In this document: positions 1,924 through 41,772 of the stretch, one piece after another
How positions within the stretch are numbered: the stretch's first letter is position 1
Layout of the letters: every line of letters begins with the position of its first letter
Assembly: GCA_026999335.1 (NCBI GenBank)
Contig: JALTPW010000949.1
Span: 1 to 44,631, forward strand
Direction of reading: 5' to 3'
From: Chromatiales bacterium
Lineage (GTDB): Bacteria; Pseudomonadota; Gammaproteobacteria; SZUA-152
Length of the DNA stretch: 44,631 nt
Notes under the pieces: generated by a model
Told to the model about the DNA's origin: nothing
The model's input: the letters and a program-made list of their open reading frames with translations, nothing else
Databases searched by the model: none
Made by a program: the position numbers and the translations under genes

Positions 1924-2048
1924 GACCTCTATTACTAATATACCTCTTTCTCCTTCTAAGGATGACCTTAATCTTCCTATATGCGAAGAATCCTTTATTT
2001 CATTCGTTTCGAGAATTTATTCACCGCAGCAGTCACAATAACGTTTGA

Positions 2049-2432
2049 TCATTTTTTCACCTCAATCACCTTCAAATAAATGTCATACATCGACAGGTAG
2101 TGGTCCAGCATCTCCCGATACTTCCCATCCCCCGGCCCCATGATCAACGCACAAGCCGGGTGCTTGCCAGTCATCAGGGCATACTATCGGGCCTGGCTAA
2201 TGCACTCCTTCCATTTCGGCGCAAAATCGAACTCCACCGCGAACCGGGCGGTAACACAATCTACTCTTCCCCCGCGCACACGTACCTCCATCTTGCCTCC
2301 CTGCGCGTTGCACCACTGAGTTTGATAGTGGCGTTCGTTGGCGGCCTGTACTGGCGTTATGTAGGACACTGCAATCAGCGATAGCGCAAAGGCAGTGCCG
2401 AGGATGGATAGCGCGATTTCTTTCACAGTCAT
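2049..2432 (-). pseudogene. nonsense-interrupted, diverged copy of the exported 127-aa protein gene at 39241..39624
   Basis: same frame, start and stop position as copy 2, but TAG at 2184-2186 where copy 2 has TGG; frame stays open and homologous after the stop. Confidence 0.7.
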
Positions 2433-2629
2433 CTCCTTACAAACATAAAATGTGTTCTCGGGCTGAACATCGCTCCTAGCGATCCTTTCGTTACGTCTTT
2501 GGCAAGTCCTTTTTTGCATAGCGCTCGTAATGTTGATAGCGATTCGCCCAGGTCATAAGCGCATTTTGGAACGCTACTGAGTTTGCCAAGCGCTCTGCGT
2601 TGCGCTTTTGTCAATGCGATCTCTTTCAT
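2429..2629 (-). CDS. hypothetical protein (66 aa), possibly winged-helix-like
   Basis: ORF track; stop overlaps next start (ATGA) with AAGGAG embedded in its 3' end. Confidence 0.6.
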   Translation of the reverse strand: MKEIALTKAQRRALGKLSSVPKCAYDLGESLSTLRALCKKGLAKDVTKGSLGAMFSPRTHFMFVRR

Positions 2630-2680
2630 GATTGCTTCTCGGTGCAGAGAGAAACTAAGCTATGTATCAACCTTTCAAGT

Positions 2681-2896
2681 TTAGTCATTATCATTCCCGT
2701 CAAACGTTGAGATCAGCATGGCCGCGTTGCGTATCCGCTCGTTATTCATGATTCGCGCATCCCGTCTGCCCGTGTTATATTCACTTTGCCGGAACCATGC
2801 GACGCTGTGCGGCGCATAACATCGCCAGTTCGATCCATCGCCGCCGAACTCATGCGCGGCCTTGACGGCCTCAACGATTGATCCCTTTTCAGTCAT
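2681..2896 (-). CDS. hypothetical acidic protein (71 aa)
   Basis: ORF 2681..2941 trimmed to MTEKGS start preceded by GGAGGCACC; overlaps upstream gene end by 8 nt. Confidence 0.55.
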   Translation of the reverse strand: MTEKGSIVEAVKAAHEFGGDGSNWRCYAPHSVAWFRQSEYNTGRRDARIMNNERIRNAAMLISTFDGNDND

Positions 2897-3053
2897 TTTT
2901 TGGTGCCTCCAATTTGTTGTATCTGGCCACGGCCTCCTCAATTAACTGAGAGGCAGGCCGGTCCTGTTCACGAAGCCACCGCACAATCCACGGGGCCAGC
3001 TTGTATGACACGGCGATCTTCCGCTCGCCGGGCGGGAGCTTGGGGCGAGGCAT
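2889..3053 (-). CDS. ribbon-helix-helix (CopG/Arc-like) DNA-binding protein (54 aa)
   Basis: ORF trimmed to MPRPKLPPGERKIAVSYKLAPWIVRWLREQDRPASQLIEEAV: beta-strand then two helices, typical RHH layout. Confidence 0.55.
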   Translation of the reverse strand: MPRPKLPPGERKIAVSYKLAPWIVRWLREQDRPASQLIEEAVARYNKLEAPKND

Positions 3054-3055
3054 GG

Positions 3056-3352
3056 TTACACCTCGCCATTCAGCACTTGCCACAGCGCCCACGCCTCGGG
3101 GCTGATGAATTTGGAGTATTCCAGATACCCCTTTGCCCGGCGAGCCGTGCAGGCTTCGCACTTGTGGCGCTCCGGCAACAGGTCGTAGAAGGTGGCCTTC
3201 ACGCGGTCGGCCTTCTTGCGGCGGTCGAAAGAAAACGGCTCCCGTGCGTAGCCTCGGCCTTTCAGCGGATTGGCCGGCAGGGGCGGCAGGTTGGTGATGC
3301 CGCCGTTGGCCTTGATCAGTTCAACGGCGACGGCTGCTTGTGTGGTGCTCAT
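3056..3352 (-). CDS. hypothetical protein (98 aa)
   Basis: ORF trimmed to MSTTQ start, which forms an ATGA overlap with the upstream stop. Confidence 0.6.
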   Translation of the reverse strand: MSTTQAAVAVELIKANGGITNLPPLPANPLKGRGYAREPFSFDRRKKADRVKATFYDLLPERHKCEACTARRAKGYLEYSKFISPEAWALWQVLNGEV

Positions 3353-3729
3353 AAGATGTCCTCCCAATTAGTCTTGACGAACCCCAGGTGGCGGAACACC
3401 GCCGTTTTGCGGACGTTGCCGTCCTCGTCCGTCACCTCAACGGACTCGCGGCGGCTGAACGCATAGACGGGCGTGACGTCCATGTGCCGGAGCACACGCT
3501 CCAGCTCGGGTATGAAGAAGGGTGCGCCGCCGATCATGGCGGCATCGGCCCCGGCGTCGCGGGCCATGCGGGCAACGGCGTGCGCCGTGGCGTTGAGATC
3601 GTCCGGCGTGGGGATCTCATCGAAAGTAAGCCAACGGGACAGCTCCCCCCGCTGTTCGTCGGGCAGGTCAACCACGCCCGCCTCGACTTGTTCAGGCGTG
3701 GCCTGGTGTTGGGTAAGGTTGATGATCAT
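3349..3729 (-). CDS. hypothetical protein (126 aa), Rossmann-like look
   Basis: ORF trimmed to MIINLTQHQATPEQ start (ATGA overlap with upstream stop); no secure family assignment. Confidence 0.6.
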   Translation of the reverse strand: MIINLTQHQATPEQVEAGVVDLPDEQRGELSRWLTFDEIPTPDDLNATAHAVARMARDAGADAAMIGGAPFFIPELERVLRHMDVTPVYAFSRRESVEVTDEDGNVRKTAVFRHLGFVKTNWEDIL

Positions 3730-4580
3730 TTCTGATCCTCCATTTTCAGTTTGCATGAATCCACATTTAGCCGGGGGCCGTCGTCAAGCTCTACCGGCAC
3801 GATCCCGTCAGTGCGGGTATAGACGACCGCACCGGCTTTGCCCTTGTATGGGCCGTCGAGGACGATCACACGGTCACCCTCCTTTGCTTCGAGGCCAGCA
3901 CGCGGCGACCAGTCCATGATGTGGTATTTGTTCATGTCGCCATAGTAGATGGCGTCGTCGCCAATCCGGCACAGCCACGCGTCGCCGCTCTCCGTCCAAA
4001 GGACGCCGTCCCAGCTAGCCGTCTTGTCGGCCGCCATAATGGGCTCTTGCCCGTCGGCGCAGATGAAGCCGAGCGAGCGGAAGGTGGAGCAGCCACCGGA
4101 ATAGCTGCCGTCAATCGAGGACGTGTGGCCCTCGTTGTGGCCGGCGATGCCGACCTGTACGACCGGCATACCCCGGCGGTCATACCACTTGGTTTCCCGC
4201 ACTTTTAGCGCGGGATTGTGCGGGTCTTTCCCGACCCGCACGGCCACCGCCCGGATGGCCGGGTCGATCTCCGGCTCCGGCTCCGGCTCCGGCTCGGGTT
4301 TGGCCTGGGCGGGCTCCGGTGCTTCGCCCAGCTCGGCGGCCAGTTCATCGACCGCCGCCGAGAAGGCCTGGTACTTGGCCTCAGCCGCGCCAGTACCGTC
4401 GCACAGGCGGTCCTCGGCGGCCTTATCTTCCAGCCGTGCCAGTACCTTACGGGCGCGGGCCAGCAGCGCAGGAGCCTCAATGGCCGCCCGCGTGACGATC
4501 CCCATGGACCGCGCACCGCGAACACTCGCGGCGGCGGCCCTGACGGCTTTGGCGCTTATTTGTGCTGCCGTCTTTTTCAT
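3726..4580 (-). CDS. hypothetical protein with PEPEPEPEPE linker and C-terminal KOW-like motif (284 aa; alternative start 4607)
   Basis: ORF 3726..4607; second ATG at 4580 has GAGGAA upstream; GDRVIVLDGPYKGKAGAVV resembles a KOW motif. Confidence 0.65.
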   Translation of the reverse strand: MKKTAAQISAKAVRAAAASVRGARSMGIVTRAAIEAPALLARARKVLARLEDKAAEDRLCDGTGAAEAKYQAFSAAVDELAAELGEAPEPAQAKPEPEPEPEPEIDPAIRAVAVRVGKDPHNPALKVRETKWYDRRGMPVVQVGIAGHNEGHTSSIDGSYSGGCSTFRSLGFICADGQEPIMAADKTASWDGVLWTESGDAWLCRIGDDAIYYGDMNKYHIMDWSPRAGLEAKEGDRVIVLDGPYKGKAGAVVYTRTDGIVPVELDDGPRLNVDSCKLKMEDQK

Positions 4581-4613
4581 GCCTTGTTCCTCTTGTTTGA
4601 TTGCCATGCTAAA

Positions 4614-4641
4614 AGTATATACCCTTATCTATAATTGTCAA
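4614..4641 (-). promoter_or_regulatory. near-consensus sigma70-type promoter reading leftward into the GC-rich cassette
   Basis: minus strand TTGACA (4641-4636), 16-nt spacer, TATACT (4619-4614); inside a 74-bp AT-rich gap. Confidence 0.55.
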
Positions 4642-4681
4642 TACTTTTTTGCAAATTATTAACCGCTATTTTTGTGTTGTT

Positions 4682-4879
4682 TTATTTCTTAGTGTTTTGT
4701 GTGGTTTTAGAGGCAACCGGCCACCAGCCGTCGCAGTTGTTGGGGTCCGTAGCCGGGCCGCGCTTGATGAAGAAGGACCAGGCTTGCATCGGGTCAGGGC
4801 GCGTGCCGCTGTCCAGGTGCCTGCGGCAACGCTTGCGATGCGGGCAGGTATCGAGGGCGCACATGTCATAGTCAGGCAT
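4682..4879 (-). CDS. hypothetical Cys/His-containing small protein (65 aa)
   Basis: ORF 4682..4888 trimmed to MPDYDMC start with GAGAGG 9 nt upstream. Confidence 0.5.
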   Translation of the reverse strand: MPDYDMCALDTCPHRKRCRRHLDSGTRPDPMQAWSFFIKRGPATDPNNCDGWWPVASKTTQNTKK

Positions 4880-5066
4880 GGCTATCATCCTCTCTGACGC
4901 TGCTCCACCACCACCATACGCCGCAGTAGTGGCAGAACAGTCGGGCGGTCGATCCCATCCGGGTATGCCCGCACCTTGGACACTTGTCGTACTCCCACAT
5001 CGTCGTAGCGTTGCCGGGAAGGTCTGCCGTTTTGCCGTCGGGTTTTAGCTTATGGTTGCTCGACAT
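4872..5066 (-). CDS. zinc-ribbon-like small protein (64 aa)
   Basis: CPRCG ... CHYCG pair of CxxC motifs; start uncertain (22-nt overlap with upstream gene). Confidence 0.5.
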   Translation of the reverse strand: MSSNHKLKPDGKTADLPGNATTMWEYDKCPRCGHTRMGSTARLFCHYCGVWWWWSSVREDDSHA

Positions 5067-5278
5067 TCAAACGCATCCAGTATATCTGGCAGATAGGTCC
5101 ACTTGTCTGGCAAGTCATCGTAAGCAAGTGGACAATCGTCTATGTCTGTCCAGACGCCTTCTGGCCAGTATAAAAGCACTTCGGGTATGCGCATTTCCCA
5201 CACGCACAGCACCGCGATGCAACTCTGTATCTCCGGCACGTGCGGCGGTTCAGTAATTGGTTTCCAGTCGGCTTTCAT
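5045..5278 (-). CDS. hypothetical protein, DUF551-like (from memory)
   Basis: 77 aa; N-terminal W-x-P-I-x-E-x-P pattern common in small phage early proteins. Confidence 0.5.
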   Translation of the reverse strand: MKADWKPITEPPHVPEIQSCIAVLCVWEMRIPEVLLYWPEGVWTDIDDCPLAYDDLPDKWTYLPDILDAFECRATIS

Positions 5279-5501
5279 CCCTACCTACCTCCCTTAATGA
5301 ATTTTCCCAACCAACGGACCTTGTAATAAAGTAGTGCTTCCCCCCTATGGCCATCCACATAGAAAAGTATTCATTTTTCTTAGGTTTTTTCTCGAATCCC
5401 CGCCATTCTCCGTCTGCGTCTAAAGCTATCCAGTTAACCCAATCGGGTGCTTCGTACTCTTTTCCGTCTATTGTTACTTTCTTTATTTCTTTTTTGCTCA
5501 T
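5250..5501 (-). CDS. hypothetical protein (83 aa)
   Basis: ORF 5250..5579 trimmed to MSKKEIKK start just after the upstream TAG. Confidence 0.55.
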   Translation of the reverse strand: MSKKEIKKVTIDGKEYEAPDWVNWIALDADGEWRGFEKKPKKNEYFSMWMAIGGKHYFITRSVGWENSLREVGRDESRLETNY

Positions 5502-5503
5502 AC

Positions 5504-5815
5504 CTAGTCCTTCATAGTTACGGCAGGAATAGCCGCCCATCCACTTCCTACCTCCGTCGTGACATAAGCGACGCTGCACCAGTCGCCTACTCTTAGGCGC
5601 GGATCAAACTGCAACATAGTCACGCTACCTAAATCGCTCCCTGAGCTTAGTTCAGGCGCATCGCAGGGTGGGACGGCAACGACCAGATTTCTTGCTGCTG
5701 GCTTTGCGACTACATAGGCGCGTGGGATCACATGGCGAATTTTCTTTACCGTGTATCCCTGTTCTTCATACCACTCACGGATAGCGCGGCGGGTTGCTCG
5801 TTCAAGTTTGGTCAT
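5504..5815 (-). CDS. hypothetical protein (103 aa), full-length MTKLERATR paralog
   Basis: ORF track; start overlaps upstream stop (TAATG). Confidence 0.6.
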   Translation of the reverse strand: MTKLERATRRAIREWYEEQGYTVKKIRHVIPRAYVVAKPAARNLVVAVPPCDAPELSSGSDLGSVTMLQFDPRLRVGDWCSVAYVTTEVGSGWAAIPAVTMKD

Positions 5816-6018
5816 TATCCGTCGTCCTCATCCAGCCATCGCTCGTATGCAGATACCGCGTTTACGTGTGCTTTTTCAAACTTTTCTATGCCTCCGTTCA
5901 CCTCGCGAAACTCTCGCCATACTTGCGCTTTAACAAGGTCAGAACTCGCTTCGGCGATCCTCCTTAGCAGCGCTAGTTCAGTGCTATAGATCAGTTCCTG
6001 GTCATCGTTATCGGTCAT
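5815..6018 (-). CDS. hypothetical acidic protein (67 aa)
   Basis: ORF 5815..6114 trimmed to MTDNDDQ start, 1 nt after the stop of the 34-aa ORF. Confidence 0.5.
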   Translation of the reverse strand: MTDNDDQELIYSTELALLRRIAEASSDLVKAQVWREFREVNGGIEKFEKAHVNAVSAYERWLDEDDG

Positions 6019-6019
6019 G

Positions 6020-6124
6020 TTATTTCTCGCGCGGAATCGCATGGTGGATTTTATTCGCCGTGTACACCTGCTCTTCACGCCATTCCCGGATTGCTTTTCT
6101 TGTTGCTCGTTCAAGTTTGGTCAT
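6020..6124 (-). CDS. 34-aa truncated paralog of the 5504..5815 protein (possibly a remnant)
   Basis: MTKLERATRKAIREWREEQVYTANKIHHAIPREK versus MTKLERATRRAIREWYEEQGYTVKKIRHVIPRAY; 25-nt exact DNA repeat at both starts. Confidence 0.35.
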   Translation of the reverse strand: MTKLERATRKAIREWREEQVYTANKIHHAIPREK

Positions 6125-6311
6125 TACTCACACCTATTTGCTCCCAAACCCTGTTTGCTTCCAAATTTAGAAACCAGCGATAAAAGTTGTAGGCTAATAT
6201 ACGTTGTTTTGATGTACGCATAACCTCGTCACCGCTAGCAAACCACCAGATAGTGAAGAAGGCGCGCCAATGATCTTTATACACACAAGATTTTTTGTGC
6301 TTATTCCTCAT
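6111..6311 (-). CDS. hypothetical protein (66 aa), weak call
   Basis: ORF 6111..6365 trimmed to MRNKHK (ATGA-type overlap with upstream stop); odd W-rich composition, AT-rich DNA. Confidence 0.3.
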   Translation of the reverse strand: MRNKHKKSCVYKDHWRAFFTIWWFASGDEVMRTSKQRILAYNFYRWFLNLEANRVWEQIGVSNDQT

Positions 6312-6534
6312 CCCCTTTTCCTCGCTCGTCAGTGAAGTCTCCTGGCTTGCATTGCAGCTCATCACCTACTTCACGACACAGACATAGGTGTATTGTCTCT
6401 GTGCCATAAGGCTCACCAAAAGCTGGGCACCAATCTCCACACCGGTCACCGTCGCAATGAATACAGAATTGGGATTTCATTTTCCCGGCCCGTTCTAACC
6501 ATAGCCAGCCATCCTCATCGATCTTGATTTTCAT
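6301..6534 (-). CDS. Cys-rich small protein, paralog A (77 aa)
   Basis: MKIKIDEDGWLWLERAG ... CGDWCPAFGEP; ends DFTDERGKGDEE. Confidence 0.6.
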   Translation of the reverse strand: MKIKIDEDGWLWLERAGKMKSQFCIHCDGDRCGDWCPAFGEPYGTETIHLCLCREVGDELQCKPGDFTDERGKGDEE

Positions 6535-6829
6535 TTTCACCCTCCCCAGCTTCCATTTTCTTCTCACCACGAAAATCTACAAGATCTTCTTTTGGGATAT
6601 AGAATGCGGTATTATGGCATAATGTTAACTGCACGCGCGGTACCAGTGTAGAATCTGTGTCATTATCAATAATCTCCTCAGAGAAGAACACAGGCTCGCC
6701 AAAATGCGGACACCAGTCCCCGCATGAAGTCGTCATCCCTATCGCAAATGAGAATGGGCATGTCTGCTGGCGGTAAATACCGGCTCTCTCTATGTGAAGC
6801 CTGCCGTCTTCGTCAATTAGTACCTTCAT
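6515..6829 (-). CDS. Cys-rich small protein, paralog B (104 aa)
   Basis: ORF 6515..7072 trimmed to MKVLIDEDGRLHIERAG ... CGDWCPHFGEP. Confidence 0.6.
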   Translation of the reverse strand: MKVLIDEDGRLHIERAGIYRQQTCPFSFAIGMTTSCGDWCPHFGEPVFFSEEIIDNDTDSTLVPRVQLTLCHNTAFYIPKEDLVDFRGEKKMEAGEGENENQDR

Positions 6830-7109
6830 CTTCTTTTCCTCGCTCGTCGGTGAAGTCGTTATCTCTATCTGGGCCGACGCTGTACTTACCATCTTGTGAT
6901 AGCTTGAGGTCCGGTATCGAGCAAACGTCGCCGGCCATCGTGTGCCACAGTAGGTGCTGGCGAATCTCGAAGGCCATAACTGACGCTGTTCGCCAGTTTG
7001 GTTTTCCATTGATAAGCATTTCATCCTTTGCCCGTTCATCACACCAGGCTTCCAGTTTCTCGATGCGATCAAGCAGTTCGTTTGCTAGCTTGGGACTTAT
7101 CTCTTTCAT
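6813..7109 (-). CDS. hypothetical protein (98 aa)
   Basis: ORF track; ends DFTDERGKEDEGTN, the same tail as paralog A. Confidence 0.6.
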   Translation of the reverse strand: MKEISPKLANELLDRIEKLEAWCDERAKDEMLINGKPNWRTASVMAFEIRQHLLWHTMAGDVCSIPDLKLSQDGKYSVGPDRDNDFTDERGKEDEGTN

Positions 7110-7687
7110 GCAGCATTTACCTCAATTATCTGCTCAATAATCGGACGCCATGTGCGCGACCACTCCAGTGCATCATCATCCATTGACGCGATGCGATCAT
7201 CATCGAAGCCCCGCCATTCTTCGATGCTGTGCTGTTCATAACCTATTGCCATTACATCCTTGGTTAAGACAATCGGCCAGGGGTCGGTCTGTATGGTCTT
7301 AATTTCTTTTCTATTGCCGATGACGTGGTGTAACTTAGCATCTCGTAGATCAGCATCGCGCAGACTGGCAAAGCCCAGATTAGCGTAGCGCAGATCGGCG
7401 CAGCTCAGATTGGCATCGCGCAGATCGGTGAAGCGCAGATCGGCAGAGTACAGTTCGACGTAGCTCAGATTGGCAGAGTACAGATCGACGTAGCGTAGAT
7501 CTGCATCGCGCAGATTGGCGTAGTTCAGATTGGCAGAGTGCAGATCGGCGTAGCGCAGATCGGTGAAGCGCAGATTGGCTCTTTCCGGTTTCGCGCCATA
7601 ATGGGCATGATGCGGTAACCCTCGCTCTGCCAGCCACGCTTGATGAGGTGTGTACCAGTCAAATTTATATAAGTGTGCCAATTTCAT
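7106..7687 (-). CDS. pentapeptide-repeat protein (193 aa)
   Basis: 17 uninterrupted A(D/N)LxX-type pentads from ANLRF to AKLHH, then a 60-aa non-repeat C-terminal domain. Confidence 0.85.
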   Translation of the reverse strand: MKLAHLYKFDWYTPHQAWLAERGLPHHAHYGAKPERANLRFTDLRYADLHSANLNYANLRDADLRYVDLYSANLSYVELYSADLRFTDLRDANLSCADLRYANLGFASLRDADLRDAKLHHVIGNRKEIKTIQTDPWPIVLTKDVMAIGYEQHSIEEWRGFDDDRIASMDDDALEWSRTWRPIIEQIIEVNAA

Positions 7688-8027: not shown

Positions 8028-8104
8028 TGGTGCGGGTAGCAGGATTCGAACCTGCGACCACTCGCTCCCAAAGCGAGTGCTCTACCAGACTGAGCTATAC
8101 CCAC
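8028..8104 (-). tRNA. tRNA-Pro (anticodon UGG), CCA encoded
   Basis: hand-folded 77-nt cloverleaf: acceptor GTGGGTA/TACCCGC, anticodon stem CTCGC/GCGAG with loop TTTGGGA, T-loop GGTTCGAATCC, 3' ACCA. Confidence 0.85.
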
Positions 8105-18552: not shown

Positions 18553-18999
18553 GTGGACGAAATAAAGCGCCCGTCTGATCATGTTCTACGAGACCGCAAA
18601 ACAGGGGATGACTGGCTCGAATCACGGTTGGAAGAGTGGGGCCACGATGAGTCTGTTTCGCGCGGCGTAGAACCACTTGCATACCCGTCTGTCTCTCCAA
18701 TGTATCGGATATGGCAAATCCAGCATAGTCAGGGATCAGTAACATGCCGGAGTACGCGATCCTTTGCCCCGATGATCCCAAGATACTACTGCAAACGCCG
18801 AATCGCCAGGACTCGGCAGGCTATTGCATCTTTGCCGAAGCGTTTTCGTAAAGCCCTTATCGCGCGGTATGTTGCTGACCACAATGGCAGAACTTTGGAG
18901 ATCCGGCAAGCGATCTTCATCGGCTGGACCCCGAAGACTTACCGCGCCCGGCTTTCTGAGGCGAAAAAACGACTGAGGAGAATCCTTGACAAGCTGTAA
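18553..18999 (+). CDS. putative late-gene antiterminator (Q-like)
   Basis: GTG start with AAGGGGG upstream; LEEWG motif and C-terminal LPKRFRKALIARY...TYRARLSEAKKRL; immediately followed by a promoter and terminator. Confidence 0.45.
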   Translation: MDEIKRPSDHVLRDRKTGDDWLESRLEEWGHDESVSRGVEPLAYPSVSPMYRIWQIQHSQGSVTCRSTRSFAPMIPRYYCKRRIARTRQAIASLPKRFRKALIARYVADHNGRTLEIRQAIFIGWTPKTYRARLSEAKKRLRRILDKL

Positions 19000-19014
19000 C
19001 AAATCGCCTATTTT
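18986..19014 (+). promoter_or_regulatory. candidate late promoter (PR'-like)
   Basis: TTGACA (18986-91), 17-nt spacer, TATTTT (19009-14); overlaps the 3' end of the Q-like gene. Confidence 0.5.
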
Positions 19015-19052
19015 CAGGTAAAATTGCAATACTTCTGTACACCTCCTTGTCT

Positions 19053-19078
19053 AGCCGCCTTTGGGCGGCATTTTTTTT
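19053..19078 (+). terminator. rho-independent terminator about 35 nt downstream of the candidate late promoter
   Basis: GCCGCC-tttg-GGCGGC followed by a T8 run. Confidence 0.7.
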
Positions 19079-19102
19079 GCCAGATATGGCAAAGGTACAT
19101 AA

Positions 19103-20638
19103 ATGGCTATCGCCCATGTCTCAACGGTCGGATATAACAGTACGTCCGACAGGGTAACGTGGAATATCGGCAGCATTGTTATTGTGTCTGCGGGTGTTGA
19201 CCGCCTCATGGTAGTTGACGCCACTACGGAGGACTCAAGCGGCGGTGTCGATATTGTTGTGCAGAGTGTTGTACTAGACCCGGCAGGGTTGGCGATCAAT
19301 CTTACCAAAGCGATAGAAGATCAGATCGTCACCTCTGGCACATGGGGCAATTCATCGTCCATGTGGTATTTGTTGGATGCGGACTATCCAGCAGACGGAA
19401 CATATGACCTTGAGATTACTTATGCCGGATCTGTCACGGAGATAGGCGCGTCTGTTAGCCAATATACTGGCGTTAAACAGGGGCCTCCAGAAGTAACTGC
19501 TTCTAATACAGCGCTATCAACCACAACTGTATCTACTTCTATTACTACCCTAACTGATGGCGCATGGGTGATGGACACAGCCTGTCATGGGGACGGGGTG
19601 GCAACATGGTCGGCAGATGTGGCGCAAAATGAGCGCGATGTAAGGGATGCTGATTCTCATTGGCATGGCGCAAGTGACAAGTCAGTGGCAACTGCTGGGG
19701 CTGCTACAATGTCATGGACGGCAAGCGCATCTGTTAATAGGTTAGTGGGTGTTGCGGCGGCATGGGCTCCCGCATCTGGGTCGGGGGCAGCGCTACAAGG
19801 CGCAGCGTCTATAAGCATTCTTGCCGCGGCGGCTTTAACGACCGGGATCAACCTTGCCGCCGCAGTCTCGATCACTGACACGGCTAGCGCCGATCTCACA
19901 ACCGGGATCAACCTTGAGTCGGCGACAACCATTAGCGTTCAGGCTGGGGCTGATTTATCCACAGATATTCGATTATCTGCGGATACCAGCATCTCAGATC
20001 TCGTATCAGCCGACCTGACTACAGGGATCGCATTAGTCGCTAATACCAGCGAGAGCTTTGCTGTTACGGCGGATCTGACGGCAGGAGGTGGAGCCGCAGC
20101 CCTAGAGGGCGCGACGAATATTACCAATACCACCGTCGCGGACCTGACCACAGGAATCCCGTTAAACGGCGATACCAGCCTGACGGTATTCTCGGGCGCC
20201 GATCTGACTACTCAGATCCAGATGGCGGCCGCTGCTAGCGAGACAATCCAGACCGCGGCAGATCTCAGCACTGGGATCTCTCTGGATGGGGCGACAAGCG
20301 TCACATTCCAGACGGACGCCTCACTTGAAGCTCCGATCAATCTCGCTGGGAATGTTGGCATAACGGTCCAATCAGCCGCTGACTTGACGACAGGCATAGA
20401 ACTGGCGTCTGACGCGGTTATCTCGGTTGATTCAGATGCAGATTTAACTACTGCGATCAACCTGGCCGGCGGGACAAATATCACCTTCCAGGCGACGGCG
20501 CTACTCACCGTCGGCGAAGTTGTGGTCCCAGAGAGCCAGATCTACGCCATCGAGGCAGAAAACCGAACCTATGCAATCGCAGAAGATGATCGGACCTATG
20601 CGATTGAGAGTGAGAACAGAACCTACCCCGTAACGTAA
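19103..20638 (+). CDS. tandem-repeat protein (511 aa), probable fibre or beta-solenoid-like virion protein
   Basis: about 230-aa N-terminal domain, about 12 x 20-aa repeats (consensus xSIxVxxxADLTTGIxLxxx), then 3 x E-x-E-N-R-T-Y-A-I. Confidence 0.7.
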   Translation: MAIAHVSTVGYNSTSDRVTWNIGSIVIVSAGVDRLMVVDATTEDSSGGVDIVVQSVVLDPAGLAINLTKAIEDQIVTSGTWGNSSSMWYLLDADYPADGTYDLEITYAGSVTEIGASVSQYTGVKQGPPEVTASNTALSTTTVSTSITTLTDGAWVMDTACHGDGVATWSADVAQNERDVRDADSHWHGASDKSVATAGAATMSWTASASVNRLVGVAAAWAPASGSGAALQGAASISILAAAALTTGINLAAAVSITDTASADLTTGINLESATTISVQAGADLSTDIRLSADTSISDLVSADLTTGIALVANTSESFAVTADLTAGGGAAALEGATNITNTTVADLTTGIPLNGDTSLTVFSGADLTTQIQMAAAASETIQTAADLSTGISLDGATSVTFQTDASLEAPINLAGNVGITVQSAADLTTGIELASDAVISVDSDADLTTAINLAGGTNITFQATALLTVGEVVVPESQIYAIEAENRTYAIAEDDRTYAIESENRTYPVT

Positions 20639-20649: not shown

Positions 20650-21036
20650 ATGAAAGCAATTAAAGACATGACCCCGGAAGAGCAGGCCAATATGCCTTAT
20701 CCCGAACTGTGCAAGCTCAGGCGGGCAGAGTGGCAGGCCCATGTTGACCAGATGACTGTCCGCCCCGAGATCAAGTTCTGGGAAAAATCCATGATAAACG
20801 AGTATGGACCCACTATTGCAGTAGGGCGCAATCGCGTATCCCCGCTGGTTGGGTTGATGGTTGTCCGATATGGTGAGGCGATCTGGTCGAACGTCACCGG
20901 CAAGCTGGAGAAGTTTTGGCCCGATGAATTCTCGGACGCGGATGTCCAGCGAGCGAATGACTGGATCACGGGAAAGCGCATCCCAGATAAGGTCATTTGG
21001 GCGACGCAAAACCCTGGCGAAGTACACGGAGACTAG
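20650..21036 (+). CDS. hypothetical protein (128 aa)
   Basis: ORF track; preferred over the antisense 20623..21084 ORF by operon direction and residue composition. Confidence 0.55.
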   Translation: MKAIKDMTPEEQANMPYPELCKLRRAEWQAHVDQMTVRPEIKFWEKSMINEYGPTIAVGRNRVSPLVGLMVVRYGEAIWSNVTGKLEKFWPDEFSDADVQRANDWITGKRIPDKVIWATQNPGEVHGD

Positions 21037-21039
21037 ACT

Positions 21040-21474
21040 ATGGCAGAAGCAAGCGATTACCTCGAAAACCAGCTCTCCGATCACATCTTTCGGACGGCGA
21101 GTTTCACCAAGCCAACCGGACTTTATTACGCGCTCTATACCGCCTCACCGGGAGACGCTGGGGGCGGGACAGAAGTTTCCGGCGGGTCTTATGCCCGGGT
21201 AAACCTGGCTCCGGCTGATGCCAATTACAAGGGCACCCACGGGACAACTACAGGCGCATCGAGCGGCACAGGCGGGCAGATCTCCAATGCCTCAGCGATT
21301 ACCTTTCCTGCTCCGACAGCGAACTGGGGAACGGTCACAGATATGGCTGTACTGGATGCCTCGACGGGCGGTAATTTCCTGGTTTACACCCCGCTGACCA
21401 CCTCGAAGACCATCAACAACGGCGATGCTGCCCCGTCCTTCGCGGTGGATGCCTTTACCAACACGATTGCCTGA
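21040..21474 (+). CDS. conserved phage virion-associated (fibre-like) protein, function uncertain
   Basis: 144 aa; LENQLSDHIFR...LYYALYTASPGD...EVSGGSYARV...ITFPAPTANWGTVT pattern seen in phage tail/fibre neighbourhoods (from memory). Confidence 0.55.
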   Translation: MAEASDYLENQLSDHIFRTASFTKPTGLYYALYTASPGDAGGGTEVSGGSYARVNLAPADANYKGTHGTTTGASSGTGGQISNASAITFPAPTANWGTVTDMAVLDASTGGNFLVYTPLTTSKTINNGDAAPSFAVDAFTNTIA

Positions 21475-21779
21475 TGCCGAGGGAATTCACCAAAGACCCT
21501 GATGCTGTCCTATCGTATAAGTTCGACTGGAAGGCGAAGACGAACGGATCAGGGCCAAGTGACTGGCTTGCCTCTGGGGTTACGATTGCAAGCCAAACAA
21601 TTACAGCGGACAGCGGGATCACCGTGGACAGCAGCAGCATTACGGATACAAGCACTTCGGTGACTGTTACCCTGTCGGGAGGGACGGCAGGTAACAGCTA
21701 CAAGGTAGCATGTAAGATCACAACGTCTGACGGGCAGACGGATGAGCGAAGTATTATGATCAATATTATCGAACGCTAA
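21474..21779 (+). CDS. conserved small phage protein, Ig-like look, function uncertain
   Basis: 101 aa; KDPDAVLSYKFDW ... TVTLSGGTAGNSYKVACKITTSDGQTDERSI. Confidence 0.55.
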   Translation: MPREFTKDPDAVLSYKFDWKAKTNGSGPSDWLASGVTIASQTITADSGITVDSSSITDTSTSVTVTLSGGTAGNSYKVACKITTSDGQTDERSIMINIIER

Positions 21780-22126
21780 TGCCGGTCAGGCCGCCAACAA
21801 TTTGCCCGAGATGCGGGGTAACAGTACCTAATAGGGGTTACTGCGAGAAACACAGGAAAGAAAGATCGCGAAAAATTGACGAGGCCAGACCAAGCGCAGC
21901 GAAGCGAGGGTATGATCACGCATGGCGCAAGATCAGGGCGTCAGTATTGAGCAGGCATCCTTTATGCCTTTTCTGCGAGGAAGAAGGAAAGACCACCGCG
22001 GCCACTGAGGTGGACCACATAGATGGAAACAGCAGGAACAATAACCCCAACAACCTGAGACCCTTATGTAAGTCATGCCACAGTCGCAGGACAATCAGAG
22101 ACCAAGGCATGCTTAAGAAAAAATAA
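21779..22126 (+). CDS. HNH endonuclease
   Basis: CLFCEEEGK...EVDHIDGNSRNNNPNNLRPLCKSCHSRRT; located next to the terminase genes. Confidence 0.85.
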   Translation: MPVRPPTICPRCGVTVPNRGYCEKHRKERSRKIDEARPSAAKRGYDHAWRKIRASVLSRHPLCLFCEEEGKTTAATEVDHIDGNSRNNNPNNLRPLCKSCHSRRTIRDQGMLKKK

Positions 22127-37038: not shown

Positions 37039-37295
37039 TGACTGAATCAAGAAAAAGAAGGTCTGAGGATTCATGGCATCTTGATAAGAGGGTGCCGATA
37101 GCCGTGATTATCGCTTTGTTAATTCAAGCAGCGTCGATCGTCTGGTGGGCTTCTCGTGTCGAATCACGGTTAGCGGTTGTCGAGAAGTACCAACACGATA
37201 ACGGCCAGTTATCGGAGCGCGTCGTCAGGCTTGAAGTCTTACTTGAAAGGGTGGACAGGACGATCTCAAGAGTCGAGAGGAAGATCGACAAATGA
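37038..37295 (+). CDS. single-TM protein upstream of the endolysin (holin candidate)
   Basis: ORF trimmed to MTESRK; VPIAVIIALLIQAASIVWWA TM then coiled coil. Confidence 0.45.
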   Translation: MTESRKRRSEDSWHLDKRVPIAVIIALLIQAASIVWWASRVESRLAVVEKYQHDNGQLSERVVRLEVLLERVDRTISRVERKIDK

Positions 37296-37717
37296 ACTTT
37301 AGTCGAGATAAGCTAGTCGCAGAACTCTCCAGAGACGAGGGTCGCGTTCCTCACGCCTACAAGGATTCCGAAGGCTATCTGACTATCGGCGTAGGTCACC
37401 TGATCGACAAGAACAAGGGCGGAAGATTGCCGGAATTCATTATCGATCTGCTTCTTGAATATGACATTGATGCGAAGGTTAGCCAGATCAAGAACGCACT
37501 CCCGTGGGCCGAAAATCTTTCCGATGCAAGACAACGCGTGATTATCAATATGGTGTTCAATCTCGGTATCACGGGTTTTCAGAAGTTTCACAATACAATA
37601 GCCGCGATCAAGGCCGAGGACTGGGATGTGGCTGCGGCGGAGATGCTAAATTCCAAGTGGGCAAGGCAGGTAGGACCAAGGGCGGAAAGACTGGCCCAGA
37701 TGATGAGGGAAGGATGA
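37292..37717 (+). CDS. endolysin, T4-type lysozyme (GH24)
   Basis: SRDEGRVPHAYKDSEGYLTIGVGHLI contains the E...D...T catalytic pattern. Confidence 0.85.
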   Translation: MNFSRDKLVAELSRDEGRVPHAYKDSEGYLTIGVGHLIDKNKGGRLPEFIIDLLLEYDIDAKVSQIKNALPWAENLSDARQRVIINMVFNLGITGFQKFHNTIAAIKAEDWDVAAAEMLNSKWARQVGPRAERLAQMMREG

Positions 37718-37965
37718 ACTTTAAGCGACTAATTGAACTAGTTTCCGGGGCGCGTACCCTGCTATTGCTCGCCGTGATGATCGGTGCGGTTGCCTTGTGG
37801 GCGCTGGATACCCGGATAACGTGGGAGCAAATGGGAACCGCCCAAAAACAACACCAGCACCTGTTGCTGTATTACCGTTTGAAAGTTCGGATCGCCAATA
37901 ACGAAGACACAAAAAGCGACAAAGTTTTGCAGGCGACCTATCAACGGAATTGGAGGCCCGAATGA
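37714..37965 (+). CDS. single-TM small protein (holin/antiholin candidate)
   Basis: ORF 37504..37965 trimmed to MNFKRLIELVSGARTLLLLAVMIGAVALWAL (ATGA overlap). Confidence 0.45.
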   Translation: MNFKRLIELVSGARTLLLLAVMIGAVALWALDTRITWEQMGTAQKQHQHLLLYYRLKVRIANNEDTKSDKVLQATYQRNWRPE

Positions 37966-38162
37966 ATGACAGATGGAAGAATCGCAGGCGTATGGCCTGG
38001 ATTGCCTTAATCGCTGGAGTGGTTTACCCATTTTTCCCGATTGATCCACAATTAGCCGCTACAATGGCTACGTCATTTTACCTGTTTGTAGCGGGGATTG
38101 TGAGTGTTTACACTGGCGCTGTAACAGTGGATGACAAATGGCAGAGGAAAGAAGATGAATAA
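37962..38162 (+). CDS. two-TM small protein (holin candidate)
   Basis: trimmed to MNDRWKN (ATGA overlap); MAWIALIAGVVYPFF and SFYLFVAGIVSVYTGAV segments. Confidence 0.5.
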   Translation: MNDRWKNRRRMAWIALIAGVVYPFFPIDPQLAATMATSFYLFVAGIVSVYTGAVTVDDKWQRKEDE

Positions 38163-38682
38163 GCTATTCGACAAGATCGTGAATGTGACCCGCTGGATCA
38201 TCGCCCAGCCACTAGGCCGGTATGGCCTGACCTTCGTCGCGGGTATGGTGTTGATTCTACTAGTTCAATGTTCCGTGGCGAGAGCCGGGGAAGTGATGAT
38301 CGGATACGATATACGGTTCAATGACTGGACCGTGGACGTGTGCAACTCGGGAACCTGCATCGGTTATGACTTCGCAAATGATATGGGATGCCTGTCACGG
38401 AACCAATTATCTGACAACCTACGTTTAGGTGGGGGCTTGTGTTACCAGTACAATACCGAATCATTGGTGGGCCGTGTAACAGGAGCGATTTCTGACGATG
38501 AAAGCACCGGGGAGGTATGGGCGAGGGCCCTTGTTTTCGAGGATTATGTGGAAGGCGCCTATGGGGTAGGGTTCAGATACATCGAGGACGATTCGATCCC
38601 TGTCCCTGCAACCGAACCCGTTGGCCCCAACCCGAACAAGCCGCACCACGAGGATCACAGGAAGCGTCACCATGAAGATTAA
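38155..38682 (+). CDS. signal-anchored protein with His-rich C-terminal tail (175 aa), unknown function
   Basis: trimmed to MNKLFDKIV; TM/signal LTFVAGMVLILLVQCSVARA; several Cys; tail KPHHEDHRKRHHED. Confidence 0.55.
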   Translation: MNKLFDKIVNVTRWIIAQPLGRYGLTFVAGMVLILLVQCSVARAGEVMIGYDIRFNDWTVDVCNSGTCIGYDFANDMGCLSRNQLSDNLRLGGGLCYQYNTESLVGRVTGAISDDESTGEVWARALVFEDYVEGAYGVGFRYIEDDSIPVPATEPVGPNPNKPHHEDHRKRHHED

Positions 38683-39031
38683 TGTAATGATCTATATTGC
38701 CGTGACTATCTTCGTGGTCGGCTTCACGCTCGGCTGGTCGGCTCATATCCAGTGGACGGCGGGCGATGCCCTGGAGGCCGTGGAAATGGCCGTTGAAGCC
38801 CGCGAAGAGCTGGGTGACGAGATCACGGATGTGGCCATCGAAGCGGAGAGGGAAGCCGGGGAAGTTCAGATCGTCTACAAGACCATCGAAAAAGAGGTGA
38901 TCAAATATGTCGAAACTCCTGCCGCTGATCGCGTTTGCCTCGATCCTCCTGCTCTCGGCGTGCTCAACGCGGCCGGTCGTGGTGAACGAGTACCCATCGA
39001 TCCCGGCCAACCTGACCCAGCGTTGCCCTGA
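38672..39031 (+). CDS. i-spanin (Rz-like)
   Basis: trimmed to MKINVMIYIAVTIFVVGFTLGW TM, then a charged coiled-coil periplasmic part. Confidence 0.6.
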   Translation: MKINVMIYIAVTIFVVGFTLGWSAHIQWTAGDALEAVEMAVEAREELGDEITDVAIEAEREAGEVQIVYKTIEKEVIKYVETPAADRVCLDPPALGVLNAAGRGERVPIDPGQPDPALP

Positions 39032-39185
39032 GACTCTTCCCGTCGTCCCCGATGGGCGTGCCGGGACGATCCTCACCTCGATGGTCAAATGGGCCGAAAC
39101 CTATCACCGATGCCGGGTTATCCATGACGCCCTCTCGTCCGCCGTGAGACGGATAGAGGAAAAGGCGGGCTCGGGGTCCAGATAG
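38907..39185 (+). CDS. o-spanin-like lipoprotein, overlapped architecture
   Basis: lipobox LLLSAC after a signal peptide; starts inside the i-spanin gene in another frame and extends beyond it. Confidence 0.6.
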   Translation: MSKLLPLIAFASILLLSACSTRPVVVNEYPSIPANLTQRCPETLPVVPDGRAGTILTSMVKWAETYHRCRVIHDALSSAVRRIEEKAGSGSR

Positions 39186-39240
39186 CCGAGTTATCCGCTC
39201 AGCTTGCGTACCACGCGTTACCTTATGGTGTCTAGCCAAA

Positions 39241-39624
39241 TCACTTTGTCACCTCAATCACCTTCAAATAAACGTCATACATCGACAGGTAGTGATCTAG
39301 CATCTCCCGATACTTCCCATCCCCCGGCCCCATAATTAACGCACAAGCCGGGTGCTTGCCGGTCATTAGCGCATACCACCGGGCCTGGCTAATGCACTCT
39401 TTCCACTTCGGCGCGAAGTCGAACTCCACCGCGAACCGGGCCGTAACGCAATCCACGCGCCCGCCGCGGACACGGACCTCCATCTTGCCTCCCTGCGCGT
39501 TGCACCACTGGGCTTGATAGTGGCGTTCGTTGGCGGCCTGTACTGGCGCGATATAGGACACTGCGATCAGGGATAGCGCGAAGGCAGTGCCGAGGATGGA
39601 TAGCGCGATTTCTTTCACAGTCAT
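39241..39624 (-). CDS. exported or membrane-anchored 127-aa protein (intact copy), possible restriction-endonuclease-like core
   Basis: ORF 39241..39711 trimmed to MTVKEIALSILGTAFALSLIAVSYIAPVQA (ATGA overlap, AAGGAG); RVDCVTARFAVEFDFAPKWKE motif. Confidence 0.6.
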   Translation of the reverse strand: MTVKEIALSILGTAFALSLIAVSYIAPVQAANERHYQAQWCNAQGGKMEVRVRGGRVDCVTARFAVEFDFAPKWKECISQARWYALMTGKHPACALIMGPGDGKYREMLDHYLSMYDVYLKVIEVTK

Positions 39625-39821
39625 CTCCTTACAAACATAAAATGTGTTCTCGGGCTGAACATCGCTCCTAGCGATCCTTTCGTTACGTCTTTGGCAAGTC
39701 CTTTTTTGCATAGCGCTCGTAATGTTGATAGCGATTCGCCCAGGTCATAAGCGCATTTTGGAACGCTACTGAGTTTGCCAAGCGCTCTGCGTTGCGCTTT
39801 TGTCAATGCGATCTCTTTCAT
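39621..39821 (-). CDS. hypothetical protein (66 aa)
   Basis: identical to 2429..2629 (+37,192). Confidence 0.6.
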   Translation of the reverse strand: MKEIALTKAQRRALGKLSSVPKCAYDLGESLSTLRALCKKGLAKDVTKGSLGAMFSPRTHFMFVRR

Positions 39822-39872
39822 GATTGCTTCTCGGTGCAGAGAGAAACTAAGCTATGTATCAACCTTTCAAGT

Positions 39873-40088
39873 TTAGTCATTATCATTCCCGTCAAACGTT
39901 GAGATCAGCATGGCCGCGTTGCGTATCCGCTCGTTATTCATGATTCGCGCATCCCGTCTGCCCGTGTTATATTCACTTTGCCGGAACCATGCGACGCTGT
40001 GCGGCGCATAACATCGCCAGTTCGATCCATCGCCGCCGAACTCATGCGCGGCCTTGACGGCCTCAACGATTGATCCCTTTTCAGTCAT
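39873..40088 (-). CDS. hypothetical acidic protein (71 aa)
   Basis: identical to 2681..2896. Confidence 0.55.
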   Translation of the reverse strand: MTEKGSIVEAVKAAHEFGGDGSNWRCYAPHSVAWFRQSEYNTGRRDARIMNNERIRNAAMLISTFDGNDND

Positions 40089-40245
40089 TTTTTGGTGCCT
40101 CCAATTTGTTGTATCTGGCCACGGCCTCCTCAATTAACTGAGAGGCAGGCCGGTCCTGTTCACGAAGCCACCGCACAATCCACGGGGCCAGCTTGTATGA
40201 CACGGCGATCTTCCGCTCGCCGGGCGGGAGCTTGGGGCGAGGCAT
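40081..40245 (-). CDS. ribbon-helix-helix DNA-binding protein (54 aa)
   Basis: identical to 2889..3053. Confidence 0.55.
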   Translation of the reverse strand: MPRPKLPPGERKIAVSYKLAPWIVRWLREQDRPASQLIEEAVARYNKLEAPKND

Positions 40246-40247
40246 GG

Positions 40248-40544
40248 TTACACCTCGCCATTCAGCACTTGCCACAGCGCCCACGCCTCGGGGCTGATGA
40301 ATTTGGAGTATTCCAGATACCCCTTTGCCCGGCGAGCCGTGCAGGCTTCGCACTTGTGGCGCTCCGGCAACAGGTCGTAGAAGGTGGCCTTCACGCGGTC
40401 GGCCTTCTTGCGGCGGTCGAAAGAAAACGGCTCCCGTGCGTAGCCTCGGCCTTTCAGCGGATTGGCCGGCAGGGGCGGCAGGTTGGTGATGCCGCCGTTG
40501 GCCTTGATCAGTTCAACGGCGACGGCTGCTTGTGTGGTGCTCAT
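40248..40544 (-). CDS. hypothetical protein (98 aa)
   Basis: identical to 3056..3352. Confidence 0.6.
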   Translation of the reverse strand: MSTTQAAVAVELIKANGGITNLPPLPANPLKGRGYAREPFSFDRRKKADRVKATFYDLLPERHKCEACTARRAKGYLEYSKFISPEAWALWQVLNGEV

Positions 40545-40921
40545 AAGATGTCCTCCCAATTAGTCTTGACGAACCCCAGGTGGCGGAACACCGCCGTTTT
40601 GCGGACGTTGCCGTCCTCGTCCGTCACCTCAACGGACTCGCGGCGGCTGAACGCATAGACGGGCGTGACGTCCATGTGCCGGAGCACACGCTCCAGCTCG
40701 GGTATGAAGAAGGGTGCGCCGCCGATCATGGCGGCATCGGCCCCGGCGTCGCGGGCCATGCGGGCAACGGCGTGCGCCGTGGCGTTGAGATCGTCCGGCG
40801 TGGGGATCTCATCGAAAGTAAGCCAACGGGACAGCTCCCCCCGCTGTTCGTCGGGCAGGTCAACCACGCCCGCCTCGACTTGTTCAGGCGTGGCCTGGTG
40901 TTGGGTAAGGTTGATGATCAT
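40541..40921 (-). CDS. hypothetical protein (126 aa)
   Basis: identical to 3349..3729. Confidence 0.6.
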   Translation of the reverse strand: MIINLTQHQATPEQVEAGVVDLPDEQRGELSRWLTFDEIPTPDDLNATAHAVARMARDAGADAAMIGGAPFFIPELERVLRHMDVTPVYAFSRRESVEVTDEDGNVRKTAVFRHLGFVKTNWEDIL

Positions 40922-41772
40922 TTCTGATCCTCCATTTTCAGTTTGCATGAATCCACATTTAGCCGGGGGCCGTCGTCAAGCTCTACCGGCACGATCCCGT
41001 CAGTGCGGGTATAGACGACCGCACCGGCTTTGCCCTTGTATGGGCCGTCGAGGACGATCACACGGTCACCCTCCTTTGCTTCGAGGCCAGCACGCGGCGA
41101 CCAGTCCATGATGTGGTATTTGTTCATGTCGCCATAGTAGATGGCGTCGTCGCCAATCCGGCACAGCCACGCGTCGCCGCTCTCCGTCCAAAGGACGCCG
41201 TCCCAGCTAGCCGTCTTGTCGGCCGCCATAATGGGCTCTTGCCCGTCGGCGCAGATGAAGCCGAGCGAGCGGAAGGTGGAGCAGCCACCGGAATAGCTGC
41301 CGTCAATCGAGGACGTGTGGCCCTCGTTGTGGCCGGCGATGCCGACCTGTACGACCGGCATACCCCGGCGGTCATACCACTTGGTTTCCCGCACTTTTAG
41401 CGCGGGATTGTGCGGGTCTTTCCCGACCCGCACGGCCACCGCCCGGATGGCCGGGTCGATCTCCGGCTCCGGCTCCGGCTCCGGCTCGGGTTTGGCCTGG
41501 GCGGGCTCCGGTGCTTCGCCCAGCTCGGCGGCCAGTTCATCGACCGCCGCCGAGAAGGCCTGGTACTTGGCCTCAGCCGCGCCAGTACCGTCGCACAGGC
41601 GGTCCTCGGCGGCCTTATCTTCCAGCCGTGCCAGTACCTTACGGGCGCGGGCCAGCAGCGCAGGAGCCTCAATGGCCGCCCGCGTGACGATCCCCATGGA
41701 CCGCGCACCGCGAACACTCGCGGCGGCGGCCCTGACGGCTTTGGCGCTTATTTGTGCTGCCGTCTTTTTCAT
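40918..41772 (-). CDS. hypothetical protein with PE-repeat linker and KOW-like motif
   Basis: identical to 3726..4580 (alternative start 41799). Confidence 0.65.
   Translation of the reverse strand: MKKTAAQISAKAVRAAAASVRGARSMGIVTRAAIEAPALLARARKVLARLEDKAAEDRLCDGTGAAEAKYQAFSAAVDELAAELGEAPEPAQAKPEPEPEPEPEIDPAIRAVAVRVGKDPHNPALKVRETKWYDRRGMPVVQVGIAGHNEGHTSSIDGSYSGGCSTFRSLGFICADGQEPIMAADKTASWDGVLWTESGDAWLCRIGDDAIYYGDMNKYHIMDWSPRAGLEAKEGDRVIVLDGPYKGKAGAVVYTRTDGIVPVELDDGPRLNVDSCKLKMEDQK

Follow-up and report, generated by a model that had tools for sequence, protein, structure and literature searches.

A 20-residue repeat protein encoded with Gp80 and Gp77 homologues, a probable rope of a beads-on-a-rope neck fiber in an HK97-like siphophage

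The repeat protein and its cassette

We analyzed a stretch of 44,631 nucleotides (the window) from a hydrothermal-vent metagenome, contig JALTPW010000949.1 of the Chromatiales bacterium assembly GCA_026999335.1. It carries the late genes of a siphophage, among them a gene for a 511-residue protein with twelve repeats of about 20 residues, the subject of this report. The open reading frame (ORF) begins with ATG, and its translation is exactly that quoted in a preliminary description made from the sequence alone. Homologues of two neck fiber proteins, Gp80 and Gp77, are encoded in the same cassette (Table 1).

The twelve units stand in strict register, 11 of 20 residues and one of 23 (unit 5, residues 314-336, NTSESFAVTADLTAGGGAAALEG), with the first and last units degenerate. 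Their consensus is a-T-S-I-T-v-q-x-x-A-D-L-T-T-G-I-x-L-a-a. A10 and L12 are invariant; D11, T13, T14, I16 and L18 are found in 9-10 of the 12 units; and positions 1, 3, 7, 9, 15, 17 and 19 are hydrophobic. Self-identity of the protein was 0.396 at a lag of 20 residues, 0.344 at 40 and 0.287 at 60, compared to a maximum of 0.218 in 2000 shuffles over lags 5-69. The tail, ESQIYAIEAENRTYAIAEDDRTYAIESENRTYPVT, is made of a degenerate first motif and three clear [ND]RTYAI/PV motifs, and the same R-x-Y block is found again at the C-termini of many family members. The array with its one longer unit and the triple C-terminal motif were thus confirmed as first described. Between units the DNA is on average 47% identical (63% at most) and the protein 42%, and TRF detected no DNA tandem repeat in the gene. 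The repeat is therefore old and conserved at the protein level, not the outcome of recent slippage.

The protein matched no Pfam family at E<=0.1 and no PHROG, had no tblastn match among 50,697 GenBank phage records and no match at E<=10 among PDB sequences, and no close relatives were found in a scan of GTDB genome proteins. Tail-fiber and collagen-like profiles (Pfam Phage_fiber, Phage_fiber_2 and Collagen; the PHROG tail fiber families) did not match it either. Pentapeptide repeat proteins, with the motif A[D/N]LXX and coils of 20 residues, share the period, and ADLTT fits their consensus once per unit, but the other three quarters of each unit are off the pentapeptide pattern. That identity was rejected, as no Pfam pentapeptide model matched at E<=0.1, the lag-5 autocorrelation was -0.70 and the column profile did not agree. 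The view that the repeat falls outside the described fiber, collagen and pentapeptide families held up in the Pfam, PHROGs and PDB sequence searches.

Table 1. Features of the cassette and of the DNA directly upstream of it (window coordinates).
Feature	Position	Strand	Assignment or evidence
Promoter-like site TTGACA-17-TATTTT (18986-19014) and terminator-like hairpin (19054-19079)	18986..19079	+	Consensus matches only
Proposed rope gene, 511 aa	19103..20638	+	Central polypeptide of Gp80/Gp77 neck fiber (proposal)
N-terminal globular all-beta domain, aa 1-225	19103..19777	+	Proposed distal tip/ligand-binding module; swapped between relatives
Repeat array, twelve units, aa 234-476, unit 5 = 23 aa	19802..20530	+	Proposed docking sites, one per Gp80-like dimer
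C-terminal tail ESQIYAIEAENRTYAIAEDDRTYAIESENRTYPVT, tandem R-x-Y motif block	20531..20635	+	Proposed anchor to Gp77-like collar
128-aa ORF within cassette	20650..21036	+	No Pfam or PHROG match
Gp80-family protein, 144 aa, bead, GP4 fiber I homologue	21040..21474	+	Pfam PF23140 1.5e-44; PDB 8jou_a 6.6e-16
Gp77-family Ig-like protein, 101 aa, collar/fiber-tail adaptor	21474..21779	+	Pfam PF23148 6e-23; PDB 8jou_D 5e-4

The gene for the Gp80-family protein lies two genes downstream of the repeat gene, and the match of its product to chain a of PDB 8JOU covers residues 1-131. This entry is reportedly the fiber I complex of GP4, a Ralstonia podophage, from Zheng et al. in 2023. It holds ten gp80 chains and three gp77 chains per fiber. 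In published structures, dimers of Gp80-like proteins are strung "like beads on a string" on a rope that passes through grooves of the monomers and completes the incomplete beta-sandwiches of the beads (PMC12609058). The GP4 rope is an independent, larger protein with five dimers, whereas the Bas63 collar protein has its rope built in as an N-terminal extension that holds two (PMC12609058). No rope-like extension is present in the Gp77 homologue of the window or in any other ORF of the cassette. As a Gp80-type protein needs a rope and this Gp77 homologue has no extension to serve as one, the 511-residue protein is the only rope candidate in the cassette.

Linkage to Gp80, Gp77 and a 20-residue period

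An exhaustive phmmer search collected 165 representative clusters of the ADLTT type. A Gp80-family bead is encoded in the window and, within about 3.5 kb of the repeat gene, at all 11 distinct ADLTT-type loci with enough flanking DNA. Relatives that share only the repeats adjoin Gp80 in unrelated phages. In one the Gp80 gene is directly upstream of the repeat gene (L002), in a second background a 136-aa ORF separates Gp80 from the rope gene, which Gp77 follows (L006/L007), and on a third contig Gp80 lies 2 kb upstream (P0008). The L006 cassette is placed between the head-tail connector (Phage_tail_S) and the tail terminator, consistent with a neck location. Gp80, a 12-unit rope and Gp77 are contiguous in L102, and in L103 Gp80 is followed directly by the rope. 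The Gp77 gene overlaps the stop codon of the rope gene in L092, L098 and L102. Between Gp80 and the rope, L092 (3384-5384) and L098 (9615-11202) have two paralogous glycine-rich proteins of about 260 aa and HNH-like insertions.

We also searched independently of Gp80 with a degenerate DNA pattern of two DLTTxI motifs 20 codons apart, which found 11 IMG/VR loci. Ten of these have an ORF with at least three units. Gp80 is encoded 1-3.5 kb upstream on the same strand in seven of the ten, and the other three loci end on that side. Among contigs of metagenome-assembled genomes (MAGs), Gp80 is present at two of three ADLTT loci, L102 and L103, and the third contig ends there. The metagenomic search proposed in the preliminary description thus recovered ADLTT-type ORFs from both IMG/VR and MAG contigs.

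An Ig-like Gp77-family collar protein is encoded beside the repeat gene in the window and fused to the repeats elsewhere. With a hidden Markov model (HMM) built from 11 Gp77 ORFs, Gp77 domains were detected C-terminal to the repeats in P0137 (two domains), P0023 and P0116 at independent E-values (i-E) of 1e-10 to 9e-12. The C-terminus of P0006 gave a weak match to the same model (1.8e-5), for which Pfam and BLASTP gave no support. In P0023 an R-x-Y block stands between the repeats and the fused domain. The AlphaFold2 (AF2) model of that domain has a predicted local distance difference test score (pLDDT) of about 90, and the structure closest to it in the PDB is 8jou_B, with a template modeling (TM) score of 0.69 and a probability of 1.00.

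To determine how far the period follows Gp80, we scored ORFs at 86 Gp80 loci: 80 IMG/VR loci fetched by Gp80 alone, out of at least 590 matches, and six other Gp80 loci including the window. Same-strand, non-shadow ORFs of at least 130 aa were scored by their best self-similarity at lags 8-45 in a 100-residue window, with a cut-off score of at least 1.3. Of 59 ORFs at or above the cut-off, 49 have a lag of 19-21 or 39-42 and only ten have any of the other 31 lags. About half of the lag-20/40 ORFs (24 of 49) lie within 60 nt of Gp80. Their 20-residue repeats include ones unrelated in sequence: FVITGAATxAQTSGFTAxGR in eight copies (L078), DxxRLRxVVGxITAxGxxSA in ten (L045) and SSSISxAVTASxSLSxEKxL in 16 (L052). 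At 56 control loci fetched by the large terminase and free of Gp80, none of 452 ORFs has a lag of 20 or 40, and two have a lag of 22.

One such lag-22 ORF, in L125, encodes a globular N-terminal domain, eight 22-residue repeats and the tail RRRTFIIQHDNRTFVVMADNRT, with R-x-F in place of R-x-Y. The repeat ORF is followed by a different small protein of 174 aa in the Gp80 position and then by Gp77. This alternative bead aligned to Gp80 with an hhalign probability of 0.3%. P0122 is of the same class as this 22-residue rope. A different bead thus goes with a different period, and the R-x-Y/F tail is retained along with the collar. L125 (8547-10848) and two more terminase relatives of the window phage, L119 (4057-7157) and L113 (2549-6494), encode Gp77 before HNH, TerS and TerL but no Gp80. 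Where L125 has the 22-residue repeat protein and the 174-aa protein, the other two encode large beta-helix-like proteins and one of 126 aa. These genes look like a sister fiber system on the same collar.

Most of the 165 clusters share one layout: a variable N-terminal part, the repeats and a short tail. The N-terminal part is a beta-sandwich in the window protein, a right-handed beta-helix in P0005 and LamG in P0007 and L010; it is missing in L090, P0107, P0114 and P0123. The window protein and P0001 are 88.5% identical over rope and tail but 31% over the N-terminal domain. The reverse holds for P0002, where the N-terminal domain is 89% identical and the C-terminal parts are unrelated, in a different phage background. 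Contigs from sister samples of the same study (runs X2 and X3) leave the window sequence at nt 19748-19785, the boundary between N-terminal domain and repeats, and one of them goes on with the P0002 junction and its type of C-terminal part. Sequencing depth was above 1000x in X3 and about 55x in X1. Mosaic tips of this kind are expected of a specificity module and would make the N-terminus the free end of the rope and the C-terminus the anchored one. The C-terminal half of P0002 was tried as another periodic rope and rejected, having no significant periodicity; its 172-aa neighbor was likewise rejected as a divergent Gp80, with an hhalign probability of 0.15%. The N-terminal domain of the window protein also has relatives, with the motifs ITTLTDGAWV, ATAGAT and AAFAPA, in proteins of non-phage appearance that carry either a signal peptide or a membrane anchor at the C-terminus (P0004, P0011, P0009 and P0010). 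This distribution suggests a type of cell-surface binding domain common to bacteria and phages.

A rope and its alternatives

AF2 gave the repeats of the window protein a pLDDT of 36-58, with two short strands (6+4 residues) per unit at low confidence, and the C-terminal tail a pLDDT below 40. The P0023 repeats scored 50-64. The N-terminal domain was predicted as an all-beta fold, a beta-sandwich, with moderate confidence (pLDDT 55-77). Foldseek matched the full-length model to the PDB only weakly and only to jelly rolls (TM<=0.22), which says nothing useful about the N-terminal domain, and gave no solenoid match. The models therefore give the repeats no confident fold of their own. The beta-solenoid or fiber shaft first proposed from the alternating small and hydrophobic residues is not supported as a self-standing structure, either by the structure prediction that had been suggested as a check or by the genomic evidence, which is for an extended polypeptide needing Gp80-type partners.

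We think it very probable that the 511-residue protein belongs to a Gp80/Gp77 neck fiber. Its linkage to Gp80, the Gp77 fusions, a 20-residue periodicity specific to Gp80 loci and the lack of a confident autonomous fold lead us to the narrower reading of a probable rope, on which this HK97-like siphophage would string the beads of its neck fiber. By homology to GP4 and Bas63, the Gp77-like protein would form an Ig-like collar ring around the head-tail connector. The R-x-Y block at the C-terminus of the rope may lock into this collar, as the gene fusions and the co-occurrence of motif and collar suggest. The twelve units would be extended and threaded through the beads, the two short beta-strands of each unit filling the grooves of one Gp80-like dimer and completing its sandwiches. 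With one dimer per unit, the rope would hold about 12 dimers, or 24 beads, and act as a ruler for the length of the fiber. At the free distal end, the N-terminal beta-sandwich could bind a ligand on the host surface, making the fiber an auxiliary adsorption device that, judging from the domain swapping, is exchangeable.

The spacing can be compared with GP4 and Bas63. GP4-type gp79 is encoded directly after gp80 and annotated only as virion-associated (L003 5430-6407, Ralstonia phage NK-7; GP4 MH638294 57950-58924). It has about 12 consecutive ten-residue segments, with an autocorrelation of 0.41 at lag 10 and 0.58 at lag 20. Its C-terminal part, with R-x-Y/L motifs, is common to pectin-lyase-like proteins of Bcep22 and BcepMigl. 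As gp79 is absent from PDB sequences, it is a candidate rope of 8JOU. Bas63 has four whisker monomers on its extension, and Cys52 is already in the globular domain (PMC12609058), so the extension must be shorter than about 50 residues. The periodicity of gp79 with the ten gp80 chains of 8JOU, and the Bas63 extension, both suggest that each monomer takes up about 10 residues of rope and each dimer 20, in agreement with the two strands per unit of the window protein. By extrapolation the window rope would be roughly 80 nm long when fully extended, near the tail length implied by the 593-aa tape measure of this phage. The three clear RTYAI motifs equal in number the three gp77 chains per fiber in 8JOU, a suggestive match but not evidence.

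Several observations weigh against the rope. Gp77 was not detected beside several of the ropes, most Gp80 phages are without ADLTT-type repeats, and a lag-20/40 ORF lies within 6 kb of Gp80 in 47 of the 86 loci, about half at the threshold used. A shallow alignment might by itself account for the low AF2 confidence in the repeats, and in the P0023 monomer model the R-x-Y block is disordered and not docked on the Gp77 domain. Stoichiometry, orientation and fiber length are extrapolations, and the identity of the GP4 rope is our own inference, since a sequence search found neither gp79 nor gp78 among PDB sequences.

Part of the same evidence would fit a fiber that stands by itself, in which the units fold alone as a beta-solenoid or trimeric beta-helix attached to the Gp77 collar beside the Gp80 fiber, like fibers II and III of GP4. 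A period of strictly 20 residues, in which small and hydrophobic residues alternate, has the look of solenoid coils, AF2 sets regular 6+4-residue strands in each unit, and the Gp77 fusions and R-x-Y tail suit any collar-attached fiber equally. The GP4 adaptor does hold three fiber types (PMC11445570). However, AF2 usually folds solenoids confidently, in contrast to the pLDDT of 36-64 seen here, and the repeats match no fiber or solenoid repeat family. Linkage is also tighter to Gp80 than to Gp77, as Gp80 is adjacent and Gp77 undetected in L002 and L103. The 20-residue period tracks Gp80 over unrelated repeats and becomes 22 with a different bead, and a self-standing fiber would leave the phage without any rope for its Gp80. 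We regard this alternative as unlikely, though it is the strongest of those weighed.

A head fiber or capsid decoration protein, anchored to the capsid through the C-terminal motifs, fares considerably worse. PHROGs labels the Gp80 family "head protein", the genes sit inside the head module in some relatives (L001 and L002), and the up-facing whiskers of Bas63 touch the capsid (PMC12609058). The solved homologues of the partner proteins, however, are at the neck or tail adaptor and not on capsomers, the L006 cassette has the position between connector and terminator noted above, and the protein has no Hoc-like Ig domain and no match to a decoration family. We consider this role very improbable. 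Least probable of all is that the gene only travels along in the late operon and encodes no virion part but a moron, secreted adhesin or effector. The gene does come first after the late promoter, and N-terminal domain relatives occur in secreted or membrane-anchored proteins (P0004 and P0011). The protein has no signal peptide, however, and across many unrelated phages its synteny with structural neck proteins is conserved and fusions to them occur. Among the roles offered in the preliminary description, a second receptor-binding virion structure is close to the rope proposed here, whereas head decoration and a non-virion effector are unlikely because of the linkage and fusions to neck-collar components.

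The rope may have a wider meaning. We give about even chances to a widespread, unannotated class of ropes with a 20-residue ruler fitted to the Gp80 dimer and a 22-residue version for a different bead. In such a class the number of units would set the length, the R-x-Y/F block would anchor in the Gp77 collar, and an exchangeable tip (beta-sandwich, LamG or beta-helix) would set specificity. This three-part code of tip, ruler and anchor would be used in sipho-, podo- and myophages, with gp79 as the 8JOU rope. If so, ropes could be recognized from sequence alone by a strict 20-residue period beside a Gp80 gene, and the number of beads, hence the fiber length, could be predicted from the unit count. 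The architecture would reach siphophages and many uncultivated phages, and the exchangeable tip would be a host-range determinant separate from the receptor-binding proteins of the tail tip. Units that can be added or removed, or tips that can be swapped, would offer a handle for engineering, and gp79 would be a candidate identity for the rope of the GP4 structure. About 165 ADLTT-type representative clusters, and many more ropes of other sequence types, are at present listed in databases as hypothetical. For the rope component, no family was found in either Pfam or PHROGs. The literature searched, to which the primary GP4 paper did not belong, has no description of the rope family, a bead-matched period, the R-x-Y anchor block, the exchangeable tip or an occurrence in siphophages.

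The surrounding genome and comparison with known neck fibers

The hairpin upstream of the repeat gene, GCCGCC-TTTG-GGCGGC with T8, ends 24 nt before the ATG. Promoter-like site and hairpin are weakly supported, as both are consensus matches only and promoter-like sites in this region are not above the number expected from shuffles. Upstream of them a Q-like ORF of 148 aa (18553-18999) has a weak sigma-70 region-4 match. The layout of 18553-19079 is compatible with lambda Q, pR' and tR' ahead of a first late gene. That the repeat gene is the first late gene, as initially proposed, is therefore plausible from the promoter-like site and the hairpin before its ATG, with the limit that these are consensus matches only.

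In L006 the corresponding place is taken by a 136-aa ORF, to which the 128-aa ORF of the window cassette has no similarity. The 128-aa product may be a chaperone or a further component, or the ORF may be an unrelated insertion. After Gp77 come HNH, the small terminase and the large terminase, the HNH endonuclease gene at 21779-22126 lying between the fiber cassette and the small terminase. HNH-terminase pairing is common in cos-type HK97-like phages. The cassette is also directly upstream of HNH/terminase in the relatives L092, L119, L113 and L128. The view that the repeat gene is oddly placed is not supported, given the gp80 and gp77 homologues beside it and this recurrence, and the comparison then drawn with lysis genes is uninformative, since an endolysin gene is found at the right-hand end (37292-37717). 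Otherwise the late genes form a standard siphophage module of HK97 type, with portal, protease, capsid, Ad1, Hc1, Neck1, terminator, tube and the 593-aa tape measure.

A direct repeat with an offset of 37,192 nt joins window positions 2048-7439 and 39240-44631, which are 100% identical from about 2400 onward; positions 1-2047 do not match 37193-39239. The window is therefore either longer than a single phage genome or the product of an assembly that put two variants of the phage together. A tRNA-Pro (anticodon TGG) is encoded in the early region at 8028-8104 on the minus strand.

To our knowledge, beads-on-a-rope neck fibers have been seen in three phage structures only, from 2023 to 2025. This kind of assembly is thus already known, from GP4, Bas63 and Sf14. 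The window system is like GP4 fiber I in that clear gp80 and gp77 homologues are encoded next to the repeat protein, and the proposed rope, like that of GP4, is a separate protein. Fifteen Ig-like gp77 subunits surround the GP4 adaptor, and five fibers I are attached to them (PMC11445570). Unlike the siphophage described here, GP4 is a podophage, and its rope holds five dimers compared to 12 units in the window protein. The window protein also has an extra globular tip of about 225 aa and a sharply conserved ADLTTGI motif. Its likeness to GP4-type gp79 is in an R-x-L/Y-rich C-terminal part and in the 10/20-residue periodicity; the two proteins have no BLASTP similarity, only this periodicity being common to their sequences.

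Bas63 and Sf14 (Felixounavirus/Ounavirinae) similarly have whisker dimers around a sandwich-completing rope and an Ig-like collar around the connector (PMC12609058, PMC11821841), and the collar-whisker assembly of Sf14 is similar to those of Bas63 and GP4 (PMC11821841). Like Bas63, the fused proteins P0023, P0116 and P0137 have the rope N-terminal and the collar domain C-terminal. The Bas63 rope differs in being a short extension of the collar with only two dimers and no tip domain. PDB profile searches for the Bas63 and Sf14 collar and whisker chains returned 8JOU only, those proteins being too distant for sequence profiles.

Two other neck fibers are alike in outline. The T4 fibritin (wac) whiskers are attached to the neck and aid adsorption or fiber handling (PMC12609058), but fibritin is a trimeric coiled coil with no beads, no rope and no sequence relation to the window protein. 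Cyanophage A-1(L) has a long neck fiber of repeated beads with a distal carbohydrate-binding module (PMC10966104), similar to the layout proposed here. Its beads, however, are gp81 trimers joined head-to-tail with no threading rope (PMC10966104), and the proteins are unrelated.

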